DNA from: Candidatus Zapsychrus exili
GTDB taxonomy: Bacteria; Omnitrophota; Gorgyraeia; Zapsychrales; Zapsychraceae
NCBI GenBank assembly: GCA_030765585.1
Contig: JAVCCJ010000075.1
Coordinates: 37,482 to 101,481 of the forward strand
DNA length: 64,000 nt
Reading direction: 5' to 3'
Shown: in pieces, positions 4,647 to 49,379 of the stretch
How the letters are laid out: every line of letters starts with the position of its first letter
Position numbering within the stretch: position 1 is the stretch's first letter
Translations under genes and position numbers: made by a program
The notes under the pieces: generated by a model
What the model was told of the DNA's origin: nothing
The model's database searches: none
What the model saw: the letters and a program-made list of their open reading frames with translations, nothing else

Positions 4647-5334
4647 AAATGATTTTATAGATGGTACTCATATAGCTCGTTTAAAAGATAGACGTTTTAA
4701 ACATATTCGTGAGATACATAAGCCTAAGGTGCAAGAAAGTTTAAACGTAGGGTTAATAGACGGAAAAATGGGGCAAGGCAAGGTAGTTAAGATAGCAGAA
4801 GACCATGTAGACTTGGATGTTTCTTTAAGAGCTAATCCGCCGAAGTCCATTGATGCAATAGTGGCAATTGCGCTTCCAAGGCCAATAATGTTAAAAAGAA
4901 TCCTTTCCTATGTAACTTCAATAGGTATTAAGAAAATTATTTTATTTAATTCACAGAGAGTAGAAAAAAGTTTCTGGCAAAGCTCTGTATTGAAGCAAGA
5001 AAATCTGACAAAATATCTTATAGAAGGCCTTGAACAGGCTAAAGATACAATTTTGCCAGAGGTTTTGTTGAGGCCATTTTTTAAATCTTTTGTTAAAAAT
5101 GATGTTACGCAATTATTAAAGAAAACAAATGTTTTTGTTGCTCATCCTGAAGCATCTAAGAGATGTCCCTCCAAGATAAAAAATCCAGCGACTATTCTGA
5201 TAGGACCTGAGGGTGGGTTTATTCCATCTGAAATAAAGTCTTTGATTGATTGTGGTGTTGAGTCTGTTAATTTGGGGAAAAGAATTTTAAAAGTAGAAAC
5301 TGCTACATATGTTGTGCTCTCGAAGTTGCTTTAA
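4624..5334 (+). CDS. rsmE: 16S rRNA (uracil1498-N3)-methyltransferase RsmE
   Basis: PUA-like N-terminus and SPOUT C-terminal motifs (IILFNSQRVEKSF ... ILIGPEGGFIPSEI ... VNLGKRILKVETA). Length about 236 aa, typical of RsmE. Confidence 0.75.
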   Translation: MNLIILYKNDFIDGTHIARLKDRRFKHIREIHKPKVQESLNVGLIDGKMGQGKVVKIAEDHVDLDVSLRANPPKSIDAIVAIALPRPIMLKRILSYVTSIGIKKIILFNSQRVEKSFWQSSVLKQENLTKYLIEGLEQAKDTILPEVLLRPFFKSFVKNDVTQLLKKTNVFVAHPEASKRCPSKIKNPATILIGPEGGFIPSEIKSLIDCGVESVNLGKRILKVETATYVVLSKLL

Positions 5335-5341
5335 TTGCTTG

Positions 5342-6136
5342 TTATATAAGCGCTGATAATAGTGTAACTCCTCCGAAGAGAAACATAAAATAAGCAAAAT
5401 TTATTTCTTTAGCTAATTTTAGCAAGAAGTGTATAGTAGCTAATCCGAAAATAAATGATGCTAATAATCCAATAATTGATTCTATGGATAGTTGAAATTT
5501 GTTTGTATTTAAGATGATGTTTCCTAACAGAACTATTGGAAGGCTCATCAGAAAACTTAATTTTAAAGCATATTTCTTATCAAATTTTCTTAAAAGTAAA
5601 GTAGATACGGTTAGGCCAGATCTGGACAATCCTGGAAGCGCAGCAAAGCCTTGAGCAATTCCTAGGATAATTCCATCGGTAATTTTTAGATCTCCTATGT
5701 TTTTGTGCCCTGAATGTTTTGCTTTAAATTCTAAATATCCAGTTATAAGAAGAAGACAGCCAATTATTATGGTTATTAATTTTCCGGTTAGATTAAAATG
5801 AAATTCTAAAGATGTTAAGATTTTTATAAGAGCAAGGCCTAGAACGCCACTTATTAATGTTGATATAAAAAGGAATTTTAGAAGGTTTTGATTGTCTTTT
5901 GTTTGAGTTTTGTATTGGATAGCAGTTTTAACTAGCTCAACAACATCTTTATTAAAGTATATAAGAGCGGCGAGAAATGTGCCAAGATGCAGGAAAAGAG
6001 CTTGTTTTATAATTAAATCGATGCTAAATTCAGAAGAAAGAAAGGTTTTTTTGACCAATATCAGTAAACCCTCGGAGCTTACTGGCAACCATTCAGCAAT
6101 TCCTTGTATTGTTCCTAATACGATTTGTTCTAACAT
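5342..6136 (-). CDS. uppP: undecaprenyl-diphosphatase (UppP/BacA)
   Basis: Eight-TM protein with the conserved GLSRSG motif (ALPGLSRSGLTVSTLLL) and N-terminal EWLPVSSEG, both typical of BacA/UppP. Confidence 0.85.
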   Translation of the reverse strand: MLEQIVLGTIQGIAEWLPVSSEGLLILVKKTFLSSEFSIDLIIKQALFLHLGTFLAALIYFNKDVVELVKTAIQYKTQTKDNQNLLKFLFISTLISGVLGLALIKILTSLEFHFNLTGKLITIIIGCLLLITGYLEFKAKHSGHKNIGDLKITDGIILGIAQGFAALPGLSRSGLTVSTLLLRKFDKKYALKLSFLMSLPIVLLGNIILNTNKFQLSIESIIGLLASFIFGLATIHFLLKLAKEINFAYFMFLFGGVTLLSALI

Positions 6137-6248
6137 AATATTTAAATATTTAATTACTATTAATAATTTTTTATTATTATAACAGGATTTGGCTTGTTTA
6201 GTATTTTGATTTAAGATAAAATAAGCAATCTTAGAAAGAAATAAATTT

Positions 6249-27403: not shown

Positions 27404-27480
27404 GGGCGATTAGCTCAGTTGGTTAGAGCACCTGATTTACATTCAGGGGGTCGTAGGTTCGAGTCCTACATTGCCCACCA
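27404..27480 (+). tRNA. tRNA-Val (anticodon UAC), CCA encoded
   Basis: Folded by hand. Acceptor GGGCGAT/ATTGCCC. D-arm GCTC...GAGC. Anticodon stem CCTGA/TCAGG with loop TTTACAT. T-arm GTAGG-TTCGAGT-CCTAC. 3' ACCA. Confidence 0.85.
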
Positions 27481-27545: not shown

Positions 27546-27620
27546 GGACCCGTGGTGTAGCTTGGTTAACATGTCAGATTGTCGATCTGAAGATCGCGAG
27601 TTCAAATCTCGTCGGGTCCG
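27546..27620 (+). tRNA. tRNA-Asp (anticodon GUC)
   Basis: Acceptor GGACCCG/CGGGTCC. Anticodon stem TCAGA/TCTGA with loop TTGTCGA (GTC). T-arm GCGAG-TTCAAAT-CTCGT. Discriminator G; no CCA encoded. Confidence 0.85.
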
Positions 27621-36449: not shown

Positions 36450-38327
36450 ATGTTTTCAAACAAACAAGAAAAAGAGAACGCTAACGAAAGACAGTACATT
36501 CGTTTAAAAAGCGTTTTTCCTGTAGAATTTACCGTTGTTCGTCTTCCAGATAATTTGTTTGGGATTAATTGGCTACAAGGATATACGAGCAATGTTAGTA
36601 AAGGTGGTATTTGTCTTGAGACATCTTACTTGGATGAACGTATTTTTTCTTATTTAGAAAAAGAAGATACGTATTTAGAAACGCGAATACATATACCGCT
36701 CTTTTTGCCACCTATAAAGGCAATAACAGAAGTAGCATGGATTAAAAAAGAGTCTGGTGAAAACTCCCTTAAGTATAGAATTGGATTAAAATTTAAATCA
36801 ATAAATCCTGCTGATCTTAGAAGAATGTTAAGGCAGGCCAGATGGATAAGATTTTCATTTAAAGCCGTTGTTGTTTTGGCAATAAGTTTTCTTGTTGCAT
36901 TCTCTGTAGCTAGTTTTCGTAATTATACGCTTAGAGCAACAAATCGTAAATTAATAAATAAGTTTGTGACTGTTCAGCAACAGCATATACAAGAAAAAGA
37001 AGAATTAAATAGAGTGTCTGATGAAAAAAGAGTTATTCTTAGGCAAATTGAAGGACAAGCAGACACTGTAACAACTCGCAAAGAACTTCAGCTAGAGTAT
37101 GAAGTTCTTGCTAGACAAGAAAAACAGATATCAGATAGATTTAATATGCTTGAGGGAAAAAGAGAAGGCCTCGAAAAACAAGTTTTAGAAAAAATGTACT
37201 TATGGCTTAAGAATCATCAAAGCCCATCTACTGGTTTAGTTTTAAGTTTCGAAGGAAGTGTTGGCATAATAAATCACTGGTCTTTTACATATGATCAAGC
37301 TTTGGCTGTTAATGTTTTTATGTTGTTTGAAGATTACCAAGCAGCTAAGAAAATATTAGATTTTTTTAATAAAGAAGCAAAGAATAAATTTGGCGGATTT
37401 GCTAATGCATATTATTTTGATTCTGGGGATGTGACAGAATTTGTTGTACATTGTGGCCCTAATATTTGGTTAGGAATTGCAATTATGCAATATACAAAAA
37501 ATACAGGTGATTATTCGTATATGCCTTTAGCGCAGAAAATAGCTGACTGGACGATACATATTCAAGACGAGGACCCTGTAGGTGGCATAAAAGGGGGCCC
37601 AGAAAGTTCTTGGTTTGCCACTGAGCATAATTTAGATGCATATGCATTCTTTGAAATGATTTACAGCATGACAAAAGACACTAAGTATGAACTAGCTAAG
37701 CAGAAGTCATTATTCTGGCTTAAAACTTATGCTATGATTCCGCATTCAAAGGATTATAAATCTCCTCCTATCAAAAGAGGGAAAGGGGATGCAACTATTG
37801 CCACGGATACTTTTGCGTGGTCTCTTGCTACTTTGGGTCCAGAGAAGCTTATAAAAATTGGTATGGATCCTGAACAAATAATGAATTTTGCTGAAAAACA
37901 TTGTAAAGTAAATATTAAATTTAAAAGACCAAGTGATGTAGTAGTTGACGTAGAGGGTTTTGATTTTTCTAAGGAGACGCATATGCCAAGAGGCGGATTA
38001 GTTTCTCCAGAATGGACTTCGCAAATGATTATATCTTTCCAGATATTAAGTGAATACTTTGAAGGTCAAGGTAATTCTATCAAGGCAGGTTACTATATTG
38101 AGAAATCAGAAAAGTATTTAAATGAATTAAAAAAACTTATTATCTCAAGTCCTTCTGCTAGAGGACAAGGAGAAGGCTGTCTTCCCTACGCAACTTTAGC
38201 AAACGCTGATACGGGACATGGATGGAATACCCCTTTTGGAATAGATACTTGTTCTGTCGCAGGAACTGCGTATATGATTATGGCGTTGAAAGATTTTAAT
38301 CCTTTGATGTTTGACTTGCCCCGTTAG
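36450..38327 (+). CDS. PilZ-domain protein with a TM/coiled-coil linker and a C-terminal (alpha/alpha)6 glycosidase-like domain
   Basis: PilZ motifs RQYIRLKS (RxxxR) and DISKGGICLE (D/NxSxxG). TM helix (AVVVLAISFLVAFSVA). Coiled coil. C-terminal domain with six-hairpin-glycosidase-like repeats (HWSFTYDQALAVNVFML, GPNIWLGIAIMQY). Confidence 0.55.
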   Translation: MFSNKQEKENANERQYIRLKSVFPVEFTVVRLPDNLFGINWLQGYTSNVSKGGICLETSYLDERIFSYLEKEDTYLETRIHIPLFLPPIKAITEVAWIKKESGENSLKYRIGLKFKSINPADLRRMLRQARWIRFSFKAVVVLAISFLVAFSVASFRNYTLRATNRKLINKFVTVQQQHIQEKEELNRVSDEKRVILRQIEGQADTVTTRKELQLEYEVLARQEKQISDRFNMLEGKREGLEKQVLEKMYLWLKNHQSPSTGLVLSFEGSVGIINHWSFTYDQALAVNVFMLFEDYQAAKKILDFFNKEAKNKFGGFANAYYFDSGDVTEFVVHCGPNIWLGIAIMQYTKNTGDYSYMPLAQKIADWTIHIQDEDPVGGIKGGPESSWFATEHNLDAYAFFEMIYSMTKDTKYELAKQKSLFWLKTYAMIPHSKDYKSPPIKRGKGDATIATDTFAWSLATLGPEKLIKIGMDPEQIMNFAEKHCKVNIKFKRPSDVVVDVEGFDFSKETHMPRGGLVSPEWTSQMIISFQILSEYFEGQGNSIKAGYYIEKSEKYLNELKKLIISSPSARGQGEGCLPYATLANADTGHGWNTPFGIDTCSVAGTAYMIMALKDFNPLMFDLPR

Positions 38328-39953: not shown

Positions 39954-40229
39954 ATGGAAATGAGTATAATAGAAAAAATAGGATTCGTTGCTGCCGTTGT
40001 GCTCCCATTCTGGAATATTCCTTTGGTAGTTAAGATTATAAAGAGAAAATCTTCTAAGGATATTAGTTTGTTGTGGGTAACAGGAGTGTGGATTTGCATT
40101 CTACTTATGGCGCCGGCAGGATTCAGATCAAGTGATATTGTTTGGAGAGCGTTTAATATAACAAATCTAGTATTGTTTACTATAGTTTTTTTTGTAGCAG
40201 TACGTTTTAGGAGTGGTAATGGAAAATAA
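39954..40229 (+). CDS. small hypothetical membrane protein
   Basis: Two or three hydrophobic helices. Overlaps the era start. Confidence 0.3.
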   Translation: MEMSIIEKIGFVAAVVLPFWNIPLVVKIIKRKSSKDISLLWVTGVWICILLMAPAGFRSSDIVWRAFNITNLVLFTIVFFVAVRFRSGNGK

Positions 40230-41139
40230 AAAAAGTTTTAAATGTGGAGTGGTATCAATTGTAGGAAGACCGAATACGGGCAAGTCTACGCTTTTAAATA
40301 AAATTGTAGATGAAAAAATAGCTATTGTATCTAAGATTCCACAGACGACTAGGAATCAAATAAGAGGTATATATAATGATGAACGAGGTCAAATTATATT
40401 TATTGATACTCCTGGTTTTCATTATGCAAGAGATAATTTTGATAAGCTTATGAACCAATCTTCATCTGTTGCTATGCAAGATATGGATTGTATAATTTAT
40501 TTGGTTGATGCGAATAAAAGAATAGGAGAGGAAGAGGAGATTGTCGCAAGCAAGTTAAAGGGAGTAAAATGTCCTTTAGTTTTGGGTCTTAATAAAGTTG
40601 ATCTAAAAGGTGGCAAGATACCAGAATATATTGCTTTTTGGGAAAGAATTAAGGGGAAACCAATTAACGAAATAGATGATTTTACGCTTCTTCCTATTGC
40701 AGGAGAAAGAGGCACTAATATAGAAAAACTTATAGATATTCTTTTTTCTTATTTGCCAGAAGGTCCAGCGCTTTATCCAACTGATATTATAAGCGATGTG
40801 CCAAAGAAGATGGTTATTTCTGATATTATAAGAGAAAAATTCCTTAGAATATTAAGACAGGAGATTCCTCACTCTTTAGGTGTTTTTATAGAGCATATGC
40901 AACCAAGAAGAGGAAAGGTTTTGCATATAAAAGTGGTAGTTTTTATAGAGAAAATGAGTCAAAAAGAAATAGTAATAGGTAGGAATGGAAAAGTTTTAAA
41001 ACAAGTTGGTACGCAGGCCAGAGCTGAGCTAGAAGAATTGCTTGAATCAAAGGTTTTTTTAGATCTTCATGTGAAGGTTCAAAAGAATTGGAGAGATAAG
41101 CTTTCTTTCTTGCAAGAAGTTGGATACGAGACTAGATAA
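40213..41139 (+). CDS. era: GTPase Era
   Basis: G1 GRPNTGKST, G3 DTPG, G4 NKVD and a C-terminal KH domain. Confidence 0.9.
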   Translation: MVMENKKSFKCGVVSIVGRPNTGKSTLLNKIVDEKIAIVSKIPQTTRNQIRGIYNDERGQIIFIDTPGFHYARDNFDKLMNQSSSVAMQDMDCIIYLVDANKRIGEEEEIVASKLKGVKCPLVLGLNKVDLKGGKIPEYIAFWERIKGKPINEIDDFTLLPIAGERGTNIEKLIDILFSYLPEGPALYPTDIISDVPKKMVISDIIREKFLRILRQEIPHSLGVFIEHMQPRRGKVLHIKVVVFIEKMSQKEIVIGRNGKVLKQVGTQARAELEELLESKVFLDLHVKVQKNWRDKLSFLQEVGYETR

Positions 41140-41227
41140 TAGCCCACCTTAATTTTACCTTGCCTTTTTAATATAATTTAGTTTATACTATTTGAAATAA
41201 TTAATATTAATATTATAAATATTAAGT

Positions 41228-41896
41228 ATGAAAAGAAAAGTTGCTTCTGTTAAGCAAATACAGAATTTAGATAAAAGAGCTATAAAAGATTTTGGTGTTG
41301 CGTCTATTGTTCTTATGGAAAATGCAGGAAGAGCTGCTGCGCATGAAATTGCTAGTATTTTAAAGAACAAAAGGAGTCCAAAAGTAGCTATAGTTTGTGG
41401 ATTTGGTAATAATGCAGGAGATGGTTTTGTAATAGCAAGGCATTTAATAAACAGGAAAGTTGATGTAGGTATATTTTTAGTTGGTAGCGCAAAGGCTTTA
41501 AAACAAGATGCTTTGGTTAATTATAAGATATTAAAGAAGTGTAAATATAATATTGTTGAATGTGTAAGCAAAGAAGTTCTTGAAAAAGTAGTTACAAAAT
41601 TTGATTTGATTGTTGATGCTATCTTTGGTGTTGGTTTAAGTCGAGAGGTTAAAGATCCTTTTAAAGGAATAATCGAGATTTTAAACAAAACAAACAAAAA
41701 GATTGTATCTGTAGATGTTCCTTCTGGTTTAGACGGAACAACCGGAAACATATATGGTTGTTGTATTAAGGCTAGCAAAACAGTTACTTTTAGCTTTGCA
41801 AAACAAGGGTTTTATAAGAATTGTGGTCCAAAATATGTTGGCAAGACAGTAGTGGTAGATATCGGAATACCCAAGGAACTGATGGATGAGGTTTAG
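41228..41896 (+). CDS. nnrE: NAD(P)H-hydrate epimerase (YjeF N-terminal domain)
   Basis: YjeF_N motifs (VLMENAGRAAA, CGFGNNAGDGFVIARHL). About 222 aa with no C-terminal dehydratase domain. Confidence 0.75.
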   Translation: MKRKVASVKQIQNLDKRAIKDFGVASIVLMENAGRAAAHEIASILKNKRSPKVAIVCGFGNNAGDGFVIARHLINRKVDVGIFLVGSAKALKQDALVNYKILKKCKYNIVECVSKEVLEKVVTKFDLIVDAIFGVGLSREVKDPFKGIIEILNKTNKKIVSVDVPSGLDGTTGNIYGCCIKASKTVTFSFAKQGFYKNCGPKYVGKTVVVDIGIPKELMDEV

Positions 41897-41965
41897 GGTT
41901 CAAGGTTACAGGTTTAAATAAAAATTTATTCTTATGCCTTATAACTTAAGCCTGAGATCTTTAAA

Positions 41966-42625
41966 ATGATATCAAATAAAAACATCTCACAGGTCATTAA
42001 GCTTCTAAAGCGTGAAGTTAAAGAATTGCCAGATCCTTCGGTAACATTGGTTGGTAAAAAGTGGAAAGATCCATTTAAAGTCCTGATATCTTGTATTTTA
42101 AGTTTAAGAACTAAAGATGAAACAACATTACCTGCATCAATTCGTTTATTTAAAATTGCTGGTAATGTCAAAGACATGCTTAAGTTGAGTCAAAGTAAGA
42201 TTGAGAAGACTATATTTCCAGTAGGTTTTTATAAAACGAAAGCTAAGAATATTCTAGGGATAGCTAAGCGTTTGATAGATGAGTTTGAATGTAAGGTTCC
42301 TGATGACTTAGATGTTTTATTGACTTTCAAAGGAGTAGGCAGAAAGACAGCGAATCTTGTTTTAACAGAAGGTTTTGGAAAATTAGGCATTTGTGTTGAT
42401 ACACATGTTCATAGAATATCTAATAGATTTGGGTATGTTAAAACAAAAACGCCAGAAAAAACAGAAGGTGTTTTAAGAAATTGCTTACCAAAGAAACATT
42501 GGATTGGATATAATGCGCTTTTAGTTCTTTGGGGTCAGAATGTTTGTAGGCCAGTGTCACCAATATGTTCTAAATGTACGCTTAGTAAAATGTGTTTTAA
42601 AGCAGGAGTAGATGTTTCAAGATAA
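41966..42625 (+). CDS. nth: endonuclease III (HhH-GPD DNA glycosylase with 4Fe-4S cluster)
   Basis: HhH-GPD motif (LTFKGVGRKTANLVL), catalytic Lys/Asp region and C-terminal Cx6Cx2Cx5C (CRPVSPICSKCTLSKMC). Confidence 0.85.
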   Translation: MISNKNISQVIKLLKREVKELPDPSVTLVGKKWKDPFKVLISCILSLRTKDETTLPASIRLFKIAGNVKDMLKLSQSKIEKTIFPVGFYKTKAKNILGIAKRLIDEFECKVPDDLDVLLTFKGVGRKTANLVLTEGFGKLGICVDTHVHRISNRFGYVKTKTPEKTEGVLRNCLPKKHWIGYNALLVLWGQNVCRPVSPICSKCTLSKMCFKAGVDVSR

Positions 42626-42642
42626 AAACAGAAGAGGTTAAG

Positions 42643-43929
42643 ATGAGATTGTTTATATATTTATCAGAAATATTAGGTCGAACTGTTCAGGATTCTCAAG
42701 GGAAAACCTTAGGGAAACTTTGCGATGTTTCTATGTTCTTAACCGAAGAGGTGTTTCCTCGCGCAGAAGGACTTGTTGTCAAAAGAGGAATCCTGGCGGG
42801 TAAGCATGCTTTTATTCATATAGACAATATAAAAAGTCTTGGCAAGATAATAAGTTTAAAAGTTGGCGAAGAAAACGTAAGGTTTCAAAGTGATCCGATT
42901 AAGCCAGAATTTTCTCTTTGTCGCGATGTTTTGGATCAACAAGTAGTTGATACTGATGATCAAAAGGTAGTTCGTGTAAATGATGTGCATTTGTTAAATG
43001 TAGATAATCAGCTTTACTTGGGCCATGTAGATGTGGGCTTACGCGGAATAGTTCGCCGTCTAGGTTGGACAAGTTTCGTAGATTCTGTTGTTAAATTTTT
43101 TTCTTTAAACTCTCCATATTTAAAAGAAGAAGAATTAATTTCTTGGAAAAATTCACAAGTACTTACTATTGGTCGCTTAAGGAATGTACTTCGTTCGGAT
43201 GTGGCGCGTCAAAAGCTTTCTAAAATACCTGCAACAGAGTTGGCCGATATTATGGAGGATTTAGATATCTTTGAGAGAGCATCTTTGTTTAAGACTTTTA
43301 GTACTGATCTTCAAAGAAAAGTATTTGCTGATATGGCAAATCATGAAAAAGAAGAGCTTATTGATCAGCTTACCGATCGCGAAGCAGGCAACTTGCTTGA
43401 AAATATACCCGCCGATGAAGCTACAGACCTTTTAAATAATCTTCCAAAAGATAAAGTAAGACATTTGATGCGTTTTATACATTCTGAAACATCAAAACAG
43501 CTTCGCAAATTGTTAGGGTATAAACAGGATACCGCTGGTGGTTTAATGACAACAGAATATTTATGTTTAAAACAAGATGCTCTTGTTCGTGACGCTATGC
43601 AATTGATTAAGGATAATACTGAATATCCAGGAAATATATTCTTTATTTATATAGTAGACGATCAAAATCGTCTTGTAGGAACAACATCTTTAAGGCGTTT
43701 TATTAATGTTGATGAAAACACTCCTGTAGTTGAAACGCGTTATCTGAGCGAAACATTTGTTAGAACAGATGATGAGATGGAAGAGGTAGCTCTTTTGTTA
43801 GAGAAATACAAGTTTTCATCTATTCCTGTTTTAAATGAAGAGGATGTAATTGAAGGGGTTATTACAAGTGATGACGTTATGGAAGAATTAATTTCATTAA
43901 CTTGGAAGAAATATAAAGATCAGTTATGA
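42643..43929 (+). CDS. soluble PRC-barrel-like + MgtE N-terminal domain + tandem CBS protein (MgtE cytoplasmic module without a membrane domain)
   Basis: Acidic helical MgtE_N-like region (TELADIMEDLDIFERASLFKTF...EELIDQLTDREAGNLLENIPADEATDLLNNLPKDKVRHL), then a CBS pair (TTEYLCLKQDALVRDAMQLIKDNT...; VALLLEKYKFSSIPVLNEEDVIEGVITSDDVME). No TM segments. The stop overlaps the next gene's start. Confidence 0.6.
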   Translation: MRLFIYLSEILGRTVQDSQGKTLGKLCDVSMFLTEEVFPRAEGLVVKRGILAGKHAFIHIDNIKSLGKIISLKVGEENVRFQSDPIKPEFSLCRDVLDQQVVDTDDQKVVRVNDVHLLNVDNQLYLGHVDVGLRGIVRRLGWTSFVDSVVKFFSLNSPYLKEEELISWKNSQVLTIGRLRNVLRSDVARQKLSKIPATELADIMEDLDIFERASLFKTFSTDLQRKVFADMANHEKEELIDQLTDREAGNLLENIPADEATDLLNNLPKDKVRHLMRFIHSETSKQLRKLLGYKQDTAGGLMTTEYLCLKQDALVRDAMQLIKDNTEYPGNIFFIYIVDDQNRLVGTTSLRRFINVDENTPVVETRYLSETFVRTDDEMEEVALLLEKYKFSSIPVLNEEDVIEGVITSDDVMEELISLTWKKYKDQL

Positions 43930-45182
43930 AAAAACTTTTTGAAAAAATTAGAAATTCAGCTCCAGTTAGAAATTTTTTATTGTTTTTAGCTGTTATGGGT
44001 CCAGGTATTATTACTGCAAATGTAGATAACGATGCTGGTGGCATAGCTACGTATTCTCTTGCTGGTGCACATTTCGGATATATGCTTCTATGGTCGTTGA
44101 TACCGATTACGCTAGCGCTTATTGTTGTGCAGGAGATGTGCGCTCGTATGGCTGTTGCAACAGGTAAAGGATTAGCTGATCTTATAAGAGAGAATTATGG
44201 AGTTAAGGTAACATTTTATTTGATGTTTGCTTTGTTTTTTGTAAATCTTACAAATGTTATGGCCGAATTTGCTGGTATTGCGGTCAGTCTTGAGATATTT
44301 CATATTAGCAAATTCTTTTCAGTTCCTTTGTCGGCATTTTTTGTTTGGGTAATTGTAGTAAAAGGCACGTATAAGTCAGTTGAAAAGATTTTCTTGTTCG
44401 CTTGTCTTTTTTATGTTGCGTATATTATATCTGGTTTTATTGCTAAGCCAGACTGGTATGAAGTATTTCAACAAACACTTTCTCCGAAGATAAATTGGAA
44501 CATTGGATATGTTGTTATGTTAGTTGGTGTAATTGGAACTACAATCGCTCCATGGATGCAGTTTTATTTGCAATCATCAATTGTTGAAAAAGGTATTACT
44601 CCAGAAGAGTATAAACATTTACGGCTAGATGTTGTAGGCGGTTGTGTTATTGCTCCTGTTGTAGCTTTTTTTATTGTTGTAGCTTGTGCAGCAACATTAT
44701 TTAAAGCAGGTGTTACTATTGAATCAGCACAAGACGCTGCAATAGCGTTGAAACCTTTGGCAGGAAGGTATGCATCTTGGTTATTTGCTTTCGGACTATT
44801 TAATGCTTCTATATTTGCAGCTTCTATTTTACCGCTTTCTACGTCGTACAGTATTTGTGAGGGTATGGGATGGGATGCTGGAGTGGACAAAAGGTTTGAG
44901 GAGGCGCCGCAATTCTTTTGGCTATATGCAACTATGATAGTAATTGGAGCAGGAGCAGTTCTTATTCCAAGATTTCCGCTATTAGGTATAATGTATTTTT
45001 CTCAGGTAGGAAATGGAATTCTTCTTCCATTTATTTTGATTTTTATGCTTTCGCTTATTAACAATAAAGACATAATGGGTGAGTTTACTAATAACAAAAT
45101 TCTTAATATTATAACTTGGGCAACAGTTGTTATAATTATAGGTTTAACACTAGTAATGGTTGTTTTTACTTTTATACATTAA
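43926..45182 (+). CDS. NRAMP/SLC11-family transporter with non-canonical metal-site motifs (DAGG instead of DPGN; APW instead of MPH); NRMT-like putative Mg2+ transporter
   Basis: 11-12 TM helices. TM1 MGPGIITANVDNDAGGIATYSLAGAHFGY aligns with the MntH motif ...[20 protein letters not shown]. TM6 TIAPWMQFYLQSS aligns with ATIMPHVIYLHS. Confidence 0.65.
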   Translation: MKKLFEKIRNSAPVRNFLLFLAVMGPGIITANVDNDAGGIATYSLAGAHFGYMLLWSLIPITLALIVVQEMCARMAVATGKGLADLIRENYGVKVTFYLMFALFFVNLTNVMAEFAGIAVSLEIFHISKFFSVPLSAFFVWVIVVKGTYKSVEKIFLFACLFYVAYIISGFIAKPDWYEVFQQTLSPKINWNIGYVVMLVGVIGTTIAPWMQFYLQSSIVEKGITPEEYKHLRLDVVGGCVIAPVVAFFIVVACAATLFKAGVTIESAQDAAIALKPLAGRYASWLFAFGLFNASIFAASILPLSTSYSICEGMGWDAGVDKRFEEAPQFFWLYATMIVIGAGAVLIPRFPLLGIMYFSQVGNGILLPFILIFMLSLINNKDIMGEFTNNKILNIITWATVVIIIGLTLVMVVFTFIH

Positions 45183-45185
45183 GAT

Positions 45186-46196
45186 ATGGGAAAAATTGTT
45201 GGTCTAACATATGACATAAAGTCAGATTGGATTATTGATTCGTCTGATACTTACGATGCTAACGCAGAGTTTGATAAGCCTAAGACTGTTGATAAGGTTG
45301 TAAAGGCTTTAGAATCTGGTGGGCATATCGTTAGACGAATAGGTAATGTGCATAGCCTTCTTAAACAAATAGATGAGCTAGATGTAGATATTGTTTTTAA
45401 TATTTGTGAAGGCATAAGCACAAGAAATAGAGAATCTCAAGTTCCTATTTTGCTTGAGACTAAAGGTATTCCTTATGTCGGATCTGATGGGCTTACTTTA
45501 GGAATAACTCTAGACAAAGTTATTGCTAAAAGATTGTTTTTAGCAGAGAATATCCCAACCCCACGATATTTTGAAGTTTCATCTACTAATAATTTAATAG
45601 ATTTAAATATAGTCGATTTTCCTCTAATCGTCAAAACTCGCCATGAAGGTTCTTCTAAGGGCATTTCACAGAATTCGCGCGTTGTAGATTATCAAGGTTT
45701 AGAGAGGCAAGTCAATCTGATAAATAATGTTTATAATCAGCCTGCGCTTGTTGAAGAGTTTATAAGGGGCACAGAATTTACTGTAGCTGTCTTGGGAAAT
45801 GATAGCCCAGAGGCTATGCCAGTTGTCCAGGTTAGCGTCGATGGCAATACAAATTTAGGGGACCAGTTTTATACTTTTGATAGAATTTCTTCAGATACAT
45901 TACAGTATGTCTGTCCTGCAAAAATAAGTGATGAATTAAAAGAGAACATACAAGACTTGGCTGTTAAGGCTTATAGTTGTGTAGGTTGCCGAGATTTTGG
46001 AAGAGTAGATTTTAGAGTAGATGAAAAAGGCAATCCGTATGTTTTAGAAATCAATCCATTGCCATCATTGGATGAGGAAGATGTTTTTAATTTGTTCCCT
46101 AATGTTTTAGGTTCAGATTATGATAAGACAATAAATAAGATATTAGATTTAGCTTTAGAGAGGTATGGTTTATTAGAATCCGTAGAGGTAAATTAA
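45186..46196 (+). CDS. D-alanine--D-alanine ligase-family ATP-grasp enzyme
   Basis: Ddl-like N-domain and ATP-grasp motifs (PLIVKTRHEGSSKGIS; EEFIRGTEFTVAVLG; DFGRVDFRVDEKGNPYVLEINPLPSL). Confidence 0.7.
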   Translation: MGKIVGLTYDIKSDWIIDSSDTYDANAEFDKPKTVDKVVKALESGGHIVRRIGNVHSLLKQIDELDVDIVFNICEGISTRNRESQVPILLETKGIPYVGSDGLTLGITLDKVIAKRLFLAENIPTPRYFEVSSTNNLIDLNIVDFPLIVKTRHEGSSKGISQNSRVVDYQGLERQVNLINNVYNQPALVEEFIRGTEFTVAVLGNDSPEAMPVVQVSVDGNTNLGDQFYTFDRISSDTLQYVCPAKISDELKENIQDLAVKAYSCVGCRDFGRVDFRVDEKGNPYVLEINPLPSLDEEDVFNLFPNVLGSDYDKTINKILDLALERYGLLESVEVN

Positions 46197-46197
46197 A

Positions 46198-47349
46198 ATG
46201 AAATCTTTAGATGTGAACAATCAAAAGAAATTAACATTGGAAGAAAATCGTGTTATCAATTTTTTCGATGATGCGAAAGTGTTGGATTGGGAAGACTGGA
46301 GATGGCAGGTAAAACATACGATTCGGACTAAAGATATTTTAGGGAAATTAATTGATTTAACAGAAGAGGAAAGACTTGGAATAGAAGGTTGCGGCAAGAA
46401 ACTTTCTATGGCAATTACTCCCTATTTTGCTAGTTTGATTGACCCTAATAATTCGAATTGTCCAATCCGCCTTCAAAGTGTTCCGCAGAAATATGAATTA
46501 GATTTTTCAAAAGAAGAAATGATTGATCCCCTAGAAGAGGAGAAATACTCTCCGGTGCCAGGTCTTATACACAGATATCCCGATAGAGCGTTATTTCTTG
46601 TAAGTGAAATGTGCGCTGTGTATTGCAGACATTGTACGCGTTCTCGTGTTGTAGGAAAGCGTACAAGAAAATTTAATAAAAAAACATGTGAAGCAGCGTT
46701 TGATTATATACGATTTAATAAAAAGATACGTGATGTTTTGATTTCTGGCGGAGATCCGTTTATGTTAGAAGATTCTGATCTAGAGTATGTTATTCAAAGT
46801 TTAAGGTCTATAGAACATGTTGAATTTATAAGATTAGGAACGAGAGTTCCTGTGACTCTTCCTCAAAGAGTTACAGTCAATCTTGTAAATATGCTTAAGA
46901 AGCATGGGCCAATTTGGATTAGCATACATTTCAATCATTCTAAGGAAATTACAAAACGAGTAAAATTTGCTTGTGATTTGTTGTCAGATAATGGAATGCC
47001 TTTGGGCAGTCAAACAGTTTTACTCAAAGGAATTAATGACAAGCCATCTATAATGAAAGAGCTTATGCATGATCTTTTAAAGATAAGGGTTCGTCCTTAT
47101 TATATTTATCAATGTGATCCTGTTTTGGGATCTAAACATTTTCGTACGCCTGTTTCATGTGGTATGAATATAATTCAGAAACTTTATGGTTTTACAACGG
47201 GCTATGCGATACCAACATATGTTATCGATTGCCCTGGTGGTGGCGGTAAAGTCCCTATTGGGTTAGATTCCATTGTTGATAAAAAGGGCGGAACGTATAC
47301 TCTTCGCAATTACGCAGGAAAGTTTTTTACTTATCAGGATCCTGAATAA
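46198..47349 (+). CDS. lysine 2,3-aminomutase (KamA)-family radical SAM protein
   Basis: CxxxCxxC radical-SAM motif CAVYCRHCTRS. KamA-type blocks (PIRLQSVPQ, ISGGDPF, GLDSIVDKKGGTYTLRNYAG) and C-terminal zinc-cysteine region. Confidence 0.8.
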   Translation: MKSLDVNNQKKLTLEENRVINFFDDAKVLDWEDWRWQVKHTIRTKDILGKLIDLTEEERLGIEGCGKKLSMAITPYFASLIDPNNSNCPIRLQSVPQKYELDFSKEEMIDPLEEEKYSPVPGLIHRYPDRALFLVSEMCAVYCRHCTRSRVVGKRTRKFNKKTCEAAFDYIRFNKKIRDVLISGGDPFMLEDSDLEYVIQSLRSIEHVEFIRLGTRVPVTLPQRVTVNLVNMLKKHGPIWISIHFNHSKEITKRVKFACDLLSDNGMPLGSQTVLLKGINDKPSIMKELMHDLLKIRVRPYYIYQCDPVLGSKHFRTPVSCGMNIIQKLYGFTTGYAIPTYVIDCPGGGGKVPIGLDSIVDKKGGTYTLRNYAGKFFTYQDPE

Positions 47350-47557
47350 TTAGTAGTTATTTATATGTGTTAGACAGTGTTTTATCAAAATATTGACCAT
47401 AGTTTGCTCTTGTGGTAGTATTATGCCCTATATAAAATATAGTTTTACTTTTTAAAGAGTTGTAATATAATACGTATTCTATTTATTATTAATTTTATAT
47501 AAAATGTTTTTAAACAATATATTATTTAAAAATGCTCGCAAAAGGTGGTGATTTAGA

Positions 47558-47716
47558 GTGATTGAAGTAAAAGTTTCTGATCCGCATAATTTTGAAAAAG
47601 CTATGCGTATATTTAAAAAAGCATGTCAAAAAGATGGTTTTATGATGGAGTTGAAAGAAAGACGATATTATTGTAAGCCTTCTGAAAAAAAGAGACATAA
47701 AGGTAAGAAAAGATAA
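47558..47716 (+). CDS. rpsU: ribosomal protein bS21
   Basis: 52-aa GTG-start ORF absent from the ORF track: VIEVKVSDPHNFEKAMRIFKKACQKDGFMMELKERRYYCKPSEKKRHKGKKR. Matches the S21 pattern (I.V...E..E.AlrrFkr.c.k.g...e.rrr..yekpse.rk). SD AGGTGG 8 nt upstream. Confidence 0.75.
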   Translation: MIEVKVSDPHNFEKAMRIFKKACQKDGFMMELKERRYYCKPSEKKRHKGKKR

Positions 47717-47825
47717 ATATTGTATTAATTTGGCTTTGCGCCATGAGTTTGTTGTTTTGTGTCCTAATAGCTAGGCATAAACATAAAGCTTTGGCGTAAA
47801 GCCATTATTTATTTAAGGAATCATA

Positions 47826-49379
47826 ATGATTAAGGTTAAAAGAGCGCTTATAAGTGTTTCAGACAAGAAAGGCATATTGCCTTTTGCTAAAAGATTACAT
47901 TCTTTTGGAGTTGAAATACTTTCTACGGGCGGAACAGCTCGTCAATTAAGAGATGCTGGAATTCCAGTTATTGAAGTATCAGATTATACTGGATTCCCTG
48001 AGATGTTAGATGGAAGAGTAAAGACTCTTCATCCTAAAATTCATGGCGGACTCCTTGCGCTTAGGAACAAAAAAGAGCATATGGATCAAATAGCCGAGCA
48101 TAGTATTGGCCTGATAGATATGGCTGTTGTAAACCTTTATCCTTTTGAAAGTGTTATAAAAAAGAAAAAAGTATCAATGGAAGAAGCTATAGAAAATATT
48201 GATATTGGCGGGCCTTCAATGCTTCGTTCAGCTGCTAAAAATTATAAAAGTGTTGCGGTTGTATGTAATCCTGAAAAATATGGAGAGATTTTAAAAGAGC
48301 TTGATGTAAACAGCGGAATTCTTTCTGATTTCTTTTTATTCCGCCTTTCAGTTGAAGCATTTAAATGCACTGCGCGTTATGATCAGATTATATTTGGATT
48401 CTTAACAGAACGCTTATCAGGAGATTTAGCACCACTTCCAAAAACATTAGACCTTAATTTAACAAAAGCTTTTGATTTGCGATATGGAGAAAATCCACAC
48501 CAAAATGGCGCTCTTTATCGTCAAGGAGGTCAAGATTGTGGCCTTACTAACATTCGTCAATTACATGGCAAAGAGTTGTCTTTTAATAATTTTCTTGATT
48601 TAAGTGCAGCTGTTAATTTCATTAAAGATTTTGATAAGCCTACAGCAGTTATTATTAAACATAATAATCCTACTGGAATTGCTGAAGATACTACATTACT
48701 AAATGCGTTTAAGAATGCATTAAAATGCGACCCTATTTCTGCATTTGGTGGCATTATAGGATTTAATAAGGCAGTTGACGTAAAAACAGCAAAAGAAATT
48801 TTTAAGAGTGGATTTATGGAATGCGTTATTTCTCCTAAATTTAATAAAGATGCGTTAGAGGTTTTAAAGGTTAAGAAAAACTTACGATTAATAGAGTTTG
48901 ATTTTAATAAACAAGTTTCTGATAAGTTTGATTATAAGAAAGTTTGTGGTGGTTTTCTTGTTCAAGAAAAAGATAATAGGGCTCTTAACGCGAATGAGTT
49001 AAAGGTTGTAACTAAGAAGAAACCAACAAAAGCACAAATGGACTCGATGTTATTTGGTTGGAAAGTAATTAAAAATGTAAAATCTAATGCAATTGTTTTA
49101 GTAAAAGGTAAAAAAACCATAGGCATTGGTTGTGGACAAACAAGTCGTATTGAGAGTGTCAGAATATCAATAAAACAAGCTGGCAAAGAAGCAAAAGGAT
49201 CAGTTCTTATATCTGATGCATTTTTACCAAAGACAGATAATATAAAAGCAGCAGCAAAGGCTGGAATCAAAGCAATTATTCATCCTGGAGGTTCTATCGC
49301 AGACGCTGATGTTATAAAAGAAGCGGATAAAGTTAACATAGCAATGGTTGCAACAGGTGTACGCCACTTTAAACACTAA
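47826..49379 (+). CDS. purH: bifunctional AICAR transformylase / IMP cyclohydrolase
   Basis: MGS-like N-terminus (RALISVSDKKGI...STGGTA) and AICARFT domain. 517 aa. Confidence 0.9.
   Translation: MIKVKRALISVSDKKGILPFAKRLHSFGVEILSTGGTARQLRDAGIPVIEVSDYTGFPEMLDGRVKTLHPKIHGGLLALRNKKEHMDQIAEHSIGLIDMAVVNLYPFESVIKKKKVSMEEAIENIDIGGPSMLRSAAKNYKSVAVVCNPEKYGEILKELDVNSGILSDFFLFRLSVEAFKCTARYDQIIFGFLTERLSGDLAPLPKTLDLNLTKAFDLRYGENPHQNGALYRQGGQDCGLTNIRQLHGKELSFNNFLDLSAAVNFIKDFDKPTAVIIKHNNPTGIAEDTTLLNAFKNALKCDPISAFGGIIGFNKAVDVKTAKEIFKSGFMECVISPKFNKDALEVLKVKKNLRLIEFDFNKQVSDKFDYKKVCGGFLVQEKDNRALNANELKVVTKKKPTKAQMDSMLFGWKVIKNVKSNAIVLVKGKKTIGIGCGQTSRIESVRISIKQAGKEAKGSVLISDAFLPKTDNIKAAAKAGIKAIIHPGGSIADADVIKEADKVNIAMVATGVRHFKH

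Follow-up and report, generated by a model that had tools for sequence, protein, structure and literature searches.

An NRMT-clade transporter and its soluble MgtE-like partner in Candidatus Zapsychrus exili: a conserved two-gene module with a possible role in regulated Mg2+ uptake

This work deals with a pair of genes found in a 64,000-nucleotide stretch of DNA from Candidatus Zapsychrus exili (Omnitrophota; contig JAVCCJ010000075.1, positions 37,482 to 101,481), which is called the window here and in which all coordinates are given. The downstream gene (43926..45182, + strand) codes for a membrane transporter that belongs, according to its sequence, to the NRAMP-related Mg2+ transporter (NRMT) clade, and the gene directly upstream (42643..43929, + strand) codes for a soluble homologue of the cytoplasmic part of the Mg2+ channel MgtE, hereafter the partner. 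The identities of both proteins, their motifs, their fold and the conservation of the pair are established below. The locus is an ordinary example of a two-gene module that has been known since 2014. What is added here is the recognition that the partner has a conserved tandem PRC-barrel and a basic tail, together with a quantitative confirmation of the pairing. Taken as a whole, the data lead us to favour slightly the view that this is an nrmT operon, in which an NRMT-type Mg2+ carrier would be accompanied by a cytoplasmic sensor and brake acting in trans.

The transporter has 418 amino acids and, by homology, 11 transmembrane (TM) helices. The identical record at NCBI, derived from the metagenome-assembled genome (MAG) of Candidatus Zapsychrus exili, carries the generic name 'Nramp family divalent metal transporter'. 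The original prediction of an NRAMP homologue is borne out by the Pfam Nramp family (PF01566), which matches over positions 1-356 of its 357 with an E value of 9.9e-103. Among PDB sequences the closest one is EleNRMT from Eggerthella lenta (7QIA; 5e-110), which aligns from end to end with 47% identity over 400 residues, whereas the best canonical NRAMP, DraNramp, an MntH-type protein, reaches only ~2e-29, a match about 80 orders of magnitude weaker. Related to this, the protein falls below the cutoffs of the MntH model (152.6 < 430) and of the nramp model TIGR01197 (66.3 < 272.5).

The ion site points in the same direction. The TM1 motif D36-A37-G38-G39 (44031..44042, +) is equivalent to D55-A-G-G58 of EleNRMT and replaces the DPGN of canonical NRAMPs, and the TM6 motif T205-T-I-A208-P209-W210 (44538..44555, +) is equivalent to T224-T-I-A227-P-W229 and replaces the canonical A-x-x-M-P-H. 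The five pairs of ion-site residues (EleNRMT/transporter) D55/D36, G58/G39, T224/T205, A227/A208 and W229/W210 are thus identical, and the glutamate of helix alpha3 is also retained (E133 in EleNRMT, E114 here). NRMTs are further marked by the loss of residues of the proton path on helices alpha3 and alpha9 and of the second His of alpha6b, a region in which the mapping covered the alpha3 Glu. In a comparison of 59 relatives drawn from many phyla, D, G and G of the TM1 motif are invariant (59/59), as are A, P and W of the TM6 motif (59/59), and the threonine is found in 58 of the 59. The alignment to EleNRMT and to canonical NRAMPs agrees with the earlier reading of the site, according to which DPGN and MPH had given way to DAGG and APW, with loss of the metal-binding Asn and Met and retention of the Asp; that reading had not listed the change of Ala to Thr at T205. 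The roles of these residues rest on the structure and mutagenesis of EleNRMT: G58 stands for the NRAMP Asn, A227 for the NRAMP Met and W229 for the first His of the proton path, whereas T224, which is Ala in NRAMPs, supplies an extra oxygen ligand required for Mg2+ transport (Ramanadane et al. 2022, PMC8806188). Because the ion site is identical and conserved across relatives, the sequence places the transporter within the NRMT clade rather than among canonical NRAMPs, as had been predicted.

EleNRMT (PDB 7QIA/7QIC/7QJI/7QJJ) therefore offers the nearest comparison, having the same length, 11-TM layout, ion site and alpha3 Glu; it differs in that the present transporter comes from an Omnitrophota MAG and is known from sequence, and in that no partner protein is named in the EleNRMT paper. 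The canonical NRAMP/MntH proteins, which are Mn2+/Fe2+:H+ symporters (DraNramp, ScaDMT, EcoDMT), are members of PF01566 like the transporter, have the LeuT fold and the Asp of TM1 in common with it, and are set apart by the two motifs described above. EleNRMT carries Mg2+ and also Mn2+, and does so without H+ coupling (PMC8806188). By homology, the predicted substrates of the transporter are partly hydrated Mg2+ and likewise Mn2+, which would be moved in the same uncoupled way.

The partner is a protein of 428 residues without a membrane domain, in which a tandem PRC-barrel region, an MgtE_N domain and a pair of CBS domains follow one another; its identical NCBI record, also derived from the MAG, bears the generic name 'CBS domain-containing protein [Candidatus Zapsychrus exili]'. 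Residues 1-80 (42643..42882, +) form the first PRC-barrel, which is recognised by Pfam PF05239 above its cutoff (residues 5-77, E 2.9e-6, 27.6 bits against 21.2), is modelled by AlphaFold2 (AF2) as a beta-barrel with a per-residue confidence (pLDDT) of ~85-95, and finds the PRC barrels 1pm3, 8onw and 3htr as well as the RC-H subunit in Foldseek searches. A second module (residues ~83-175) and a flexible linker (residues 176-185; 43168..43197, +), where the pLDDT of the full-length model drops below 50, separate this barrel from the MgtE-like part. The latter is composed of the helical MgtE_N domain (residues ~186-296; 43198..43530, +) and the CBS pair (residues ~297-416; 43531..43890, +), both of them supported by Pfam, by alignment to MgtE and by structural matches; the Pfam matches are MgtE_N at residues 197-296 (E 2.1e-19) and CBS in two stretches (E 6.9e-15). 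The protein ends 12 residues beyond the CBS pair with a short tail, I417-L428, ISLTWKKYKDQL (43891..43926, +), which appears as a gapless extension of the MgtE alignment, has counterparts in the tails of the family and is part of a helix in the AF2 model (409-424). It occupies the position where the acidic plug helix of MgtE begins.

Several lines of evidence identify the MgtE-like part. The best sequence matches of residues 186-416 are cytoplasmic domains of MgtE (8gpv, 7.6e-30; 2oux, 4.5e-28; 2yvy from Thermus thermophilus, 5.4e-27), and the same domains are the best structural matches of the model, with TM-scores on the target of 0.79-0.87 and root-mean-square deviations (rmsd) of 2.5-3.4 Å. 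The model was built on 56 homologues and has a mean pLDDT of 85.8; it contains no transmembrane helix, and Pfam detects no match of the C-terminal five-helix pore domain of MgtE (PF01769) on the partner. The NCBIfam equivalog mgtE (TIGR00400) scores 149.5, under its cutoff of 232.75, and is matched only from position 21 to 253 of a 450-position profile, and this partial match therefore indicates that the cytoplasmic part of MgtE alone is present. Pfam, NCBIfam and AF2 hence agree with the domain content originally read from the sequence, namely PRC-barrel, MgtE_N and two CBS domains with no membrane domain. By sequence and model, the upstream gene encodes a soluble, pore-free homologue of MgtE's cytoplasmic domain, and its product therefore is not an MgtE channel; the first ~175 residues of this protein have no counterpart in MgtE.

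The module that lies between the first barrel and the linker (residues ~83-175; 42889..43167, +) has no Pfam match. Profile-profile comparison by hhalign aligns it in register with the first barrel (probability 74%, E 2.8e-5), it is beta-rich in the AF2 model with a helical insert, and the best Foldseek matches of the N-terminal model are the two-PRC-barrel proteins CdpB1/CdpB2 (8qzo), over 150-160 columns, with single PRC-barrels ranking next. When residues 1-185 are modelled alone, the pLDDT is 72.8, lower than for the same region in the full-length model, so that moderate evidence suggests a second, divergent PRC-barrel. This module is also the best-conserved block of the partner, with L97, D98, Q100, D103, R111-V-N-D114, D130, G132, R138, R139 and W168 standing out. 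CdpB1/CdpB2 of Archaeoglobus fulgidus (PDB 8QZO, 8ONW) resemble the N-terminal 175 residues in their two-barrel layout, but the identity is ~15%, the rmsd across both barrels is 9-12 Å and they have no link to metal transport; the likeness is one of fold only.

To examine the pairing of the two genes, the NRMT alignment was searched against a set in which each species is represented by a single genome; this gave at least 596 relatives, and the best 80 loci were used. They come from Omnitrophota, Acidobacteriota, Desulfobacterota, Nitrospirota, Planctomycetota, Zixibacteria, Spirochaetota, Actinomycetota and other phyla, and 72 of them are informative, having at least 1400 nt of upstream sequence. 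A full-length partner (query residues ~1-415, PRC region included) lies directly upstream on the same strand at 63 of the 72, and at five more it is located elsewhere within 5 kb; the remaining four (L034, L053, L069 and L080) have no partner. As for the eight loci whose upstream sequence is too short, a partner truncated by the contig end is present at four and none at the other four. The conservation of the two genes as neighbours, on which the original prediction depended, is thus confirmed, and the pairing is clearly under selection.

Three of the loci without a partner belong to magnetotactic Nitrospirota (Candidatus Magnetobacterium, Magnetominusculus and a related Nitrospirota MAG; L034, L053 and L069) and lack it although 5 kb of sequence upstream are available, an absence specific to this lineage. 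Natural fusions of partner and carrier were also considered. An apparent 831-residue reading frame at locus L052 proved to be split by an in-frame TGA, the same applies to L078, and there is no fusion among the best 120 homologues of either protein, all of which have ~400-445 residues. A different arrangement is seen in a Coriobacteriia MAG (DASXUP010000019.1; locus L076), where a protein of 601 residues with PRC, MgtE_N and two CBS domains (L076:3190-4995) is encoded upstream of the NRMT gene (5001-6203). Its C-terminal ~190 residues are hydrophobic and match PF01769 weakly, with 24.5 bits where the cutoff is 27.6. This protein may be an MgtE channel of full length that bears a PRC domain, and thus a possible evolutionary intermediate toward the soluble partner.

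The arrangement had at first been taken as undescribed, and this claim of novelty fails because Shin et al. (2014, PLoS Genet, PMC4072509) had already reported that most nrmT genes adjoin a gene whose product is a soluble protein homologous to MgtE's cytoplasmic domain. These authors used the term 'mgtE-nramp operons' for such units (Fig. S5 of their paper) and proposed that the fragment serves in cytoplasmic feedback regulation or as a metal chaperone (PMC4072509). Their operons Ca_c0685 and Ca_c3329 of C. acetobutylicum and Acp2976/Acp2977 of Acidobacterium capsulatum form the same two-gene unit, with the MgtE-like gene upstream; the present locus differs in having no M-box riboswitch, which is found in a subset of theirs, and its partner is a single gene, whereas that of C. 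acetobutylicum is split. No later literature characterising the partner was found under the topics NRMT with CBS or SLC11, MgtE-like, and PRC-barrel with MgtE, and the protein goes unmentioned both in the EleNRMT paper (PMC8806188) and in the phylogenetic work of Cellier. As a discovery the locus consequently has little weight, since the gene pair, the breadth of its occurrence and the hypothesis of regulation have been in print since 2014 and the structure of the transporter family since 2022. Its remaining value concerns the role of the partner, a protein that has been the subject of one negative co-expression test and that is found along with the carrier in most of the sampled genomes, which were taken from at least 596 species genomes with a close NRMT relative.

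In the mechanism that we favour, the carrier would have the LeuT fold and a widened ion site whose ligands come from Asp, Thr and the backbone, Gly and Ala standing in place of Asn and Met, and it would take up largely hydrated Mg2+, and also Mn2+, whose inward movement would proceed without proton coupling. The partner would be a soluble descendant of the cytoplasmic Mg2+-sensing module of MgtE to which a tandem PRC-barrel has been added in front. At high free Mg2+ its N and CBS domains would clamp together as they do in MgtE, by means of the retained acidic sites Mg4 and Mg6, and the clamped protein would dock on the carrier from its cytoplasmic side and slow down the uptake. Docking on the carrier or on the membrane would probably involve the conserved second PRC-barrel and the basic C-terminal tail, so that the Mg2+-driven closure of the N/CBS clamp would decide whether the carrier is inhibited. 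That an MgtE-type sensor regulates an NRMT, as originally proposed, is a plausible hypothesis. We infer physical binding, Mg2+ sensing and inhibition of the carrier.

The need for such a control can be argued from other Mg2+ transport systems. In CorA and MgtE the brake against Mg2+ overload is provided by their own cytoplasmic domains, and by analogy an uncoupled NRMT carrier would need one too. Since EleNRMT is uncoupled, a brake acting after translation would be physiologically sensible, the more so because the M-box riboswitch is absent here.

The residues of the partner give further information on the clamp. The Mg2+ sites defined for the MgtE of T. thermophilus (TtMgtE; PMC5882242) were mapped onto the partner by means of a phmmer pairwise alignment, and the residues were counted in 61 members of the family. 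At site Mg6, D95 of TtMgtE corresponds to D262 (D in 58/61), and at site Mg4, D91 and D247 correspond to D258 (D in 47/61) and D411 (D in 48/61). Site Mg5 is half retained, with E414 at the position of D250 (E or D in 34/61). On this low-identity alignment, the full set Mg2-Mg7 is thus represented by Mg4 and Mg6, with Mg5 retained by half, Mg7 lost and Mg2/Mg3 absent. The retained acidic residues make it plausible that the interdomain Mg2+ clamp joining N domain and CBS pair survives in the partner. The comparison with the MgtE cytoplasmic domain (T. thermophilus 2YVY/2ZY9; 8GPV, 2OUX, 8GPS) can be summarised in these terms: the fold of N domain and CBS pair is shared (target TM-score ~0.8) and the acidic residues of Mg4 and Mg6 are kept, whereas the transmembrane pore is missing, a short basic tail takes the place of the acidic plug helix, the ligands of Mg5 and Mg7 are partly lost, the ATP-binding residues are poorly retained and ~185 residues are added at the N-terminus. 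To judge from the alignment, all the parts that link the clamp to the MgtE pore are replaced.

The tail is rich in Lys and Arg in many relatives. Examples of such tails are RKRRRRV, RKKRRKR and RRGRRRLR, from a group that includes loci L005, L006, L009, L018, L027, L039 and L070; in other lineages, such as Syntrophales and Bryobacterales, the tails are short and neutral. MgtE-like sensing of ATP by the CBS pair was also considered and is unsupported, as only two of the five ligand side chains are present in the partner and these positions vary across the family.

Several observations weigh against the sensor-and-brake mechanism. Closure of MgtE requires all its sites (PMC5882242), and the partner does not keep them all: at Mg5, TtMgtE D226 is matched by K390, a position variable in the family; at Mg7, E59 is matched by K226, with E or D in 49 of 61 relatives; and at Mg2/Mg3 the plug-helix residues E258/D259 are matched by K422/K423, with no acidic counterpart. 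Sites Mg2, Mg3 and Mg5 of MgtE make use of the plug helix, which has no counterpart in the partner, and the residue mapping itself rests on a pairwise alignment of ~28% identity. The four loci without a partner show that the transporter can exist alone. Experimental data are also unfavourable: when Acp2976/Acp2977 of A. capsulatum were co-expressed, the partner added nothing to the rescue by the transporter, the transporter rescued an Mn2+ mutant well and an Mg2+ mutant weakly and behaved mainly as an Mn2+ importer, and C. acetobutylicum NrmT proteins were able to transport Mg2+ in the absence of the partner (PMC4072509). The only published functional test of the partner was thus negative, and no experiment supports regulation. 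Considering the Mn2+ behaviour of the A. capsulatum protein, gene pairing is therefore no guarantee of Mg2+ specificity.

A more specific version of the mechanism can be put forward tentatively, and we regard it as clearly less probable than the general one. The partner could be, beyond a remnant of MgtE, a distinct and widespread gating subunit acting in trans, whose conserved tandem PRC-barrel, notably its invariant LDxQ...RVND...D.G...RR block, would dock while the N/CBS module would work as the Mg2+ switch. If this were true, it would be the first case in which an SLC11-type carrier is controlled in trans by an ion sensor that is soluble. The tandem PRC-barrel and the basic tail are, in any case, concrete targets for understanding how an uncoupled Mg2+ carrier avoids overloading the cell.

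Two rival explanations, both judged rather unlikely and about equally so, have to be weighed against the sensor-and-brake mechanism. According to the first one, the module would be devoted mainly to Mn2+ uptake, or to a mixed uptake of Mn2+ and Mg2+, and the partner would sense Mn2+ or another signal. This fits the rescue pattern of the A. capsulatum member (PMC4072509), the fact that EleNRMT also transports Mn2+ (PMC8806188) and the absence of any Mg2+ riboswitch from the locus in Rfam searches; besides, the acidobacterial relatives in our set share DAGG and TxxAPW, and these motifs therefore do not separate Mg2+ from Mn2+ carriers. On the other hand, T224 of EleNRMT, equivalent to T205, is specifically needed for Mg2+ transport (PMC8806188), the transporter lacks the Met whose thioether favours transition metals, and the acidic sites retained in the partner are Mg2+ binders in MgtE.

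In the second explanation the partner would be a chaperone or buffer, or a factor for assembly or localisation, for instance a PRC-barrel tether of the carrier to another structure, and not a gate. Shin et al. offered the chaperone as an alternative, and the lack of effect of co-expression on transport-dependent growth agrees with it (PMC4072509). It also fits that the best-conserved part of the partner is the PRC module and not the MgtE-derived sensor, that the closest tandem-PRC structures, CdpB1/CdpB2, are protein-protein scaffolds, and that the partner evolves faster than the carrier (median identity 31% against ~60%). A simple tether, however, would not need the MgtE_N and CBS architecture and the interdomain acidic residues that are retained across phyla, and there is no other conserved neighbour pointing to a larger complex, the flanks in the window being housekeeping genes. 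Finally, although the genes of the window are unrelated and follow one another closely on a single strand, tiny gaps between them, so that the overlap alone is weak evidence in this genome, an incidental adjacency of functionally unrelated genes is effectively refuted by the cross-phylum conservation of the pair (63/72), a pattern in which the flanking genes take no part and which was independently reported in 2014 (PMC4072509).

As regards the organisation of the locus, a Shine-Dalgarno-like GAAGAGG (42631..42637, +), read from the sequence, stands 5 nt before the ATG of the partner gene. The four-nucleotide overlap noticed originally between the stop codon of this gene and the start codon of the transporter gene is the ATGA at 43926..43929 (+), also read directly from the sequence. 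This overlap implies that both proteins are made from one transcript, and translational coupling of the pair is probable. Only 17 nt separate the stop codon of nth from the partner gene, which leaves no room for a leader or a riboswitch. In agreement with this, no M-box or other cis-regulatory RNA was matched by Rfam at the gathering threshold in the whole window, and a permissive search of 41100-43000 for riboswitches, with E values up to 10, gave only noise. A scan of 40000-48000 for promoters and terminators stayed at chance level, with 32 promoter-like sequences (32.4 expected) and one terminator-like sequence (2.9 expected). The only Rfam matches at the gathering threshold in the window are two tRNA genes (27404-27477 and 27546-27620, +).

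The surroundings of the pair are not a metal-homeostasis island. Its neighbours are housekeeping genes unrelated to it, which code for Era, an NAD(P)HX epimerase, Nth, a Ddl-like ATP-grasp protein, a KamA-family enzyme and PurH. The Ddl-like ATP-grasp ligase and the KamA-family radical-SAM aminomutase are encoded directly after the NRMT gene (45186-47349, +), with gaps of 3 nt and 1 nt. The ligase scores below every D-Ala-D-Ala ligase cutoff, and the aminomutase lies below the cutoffs of the Lys-, Glu- and Arg-2,3-aminomutase equivalogs and passes the KamA subfamily model only; the two enzymes may together produce a beta-amino acid and ligate it. Farther upstream (36450-38327, +), a protein of 625 residues has no NCBIfam match; inspection by eye suggests a PilZ-like N-terminus (RQYIR ... 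NVSKGG), after which would come a membrane segment, then a coiled coil and lastly a C-terminal domain of large size. The real-looking genes between 36 and 51 kb are all on the + strand, with very short gaps or overlaps, and in the window (1-64000; ~33% GC) the GC skew is positive in all 2-kb bins (0.10-0.32); skew and gene layout are consistent with a compact genome read along its leading strand.

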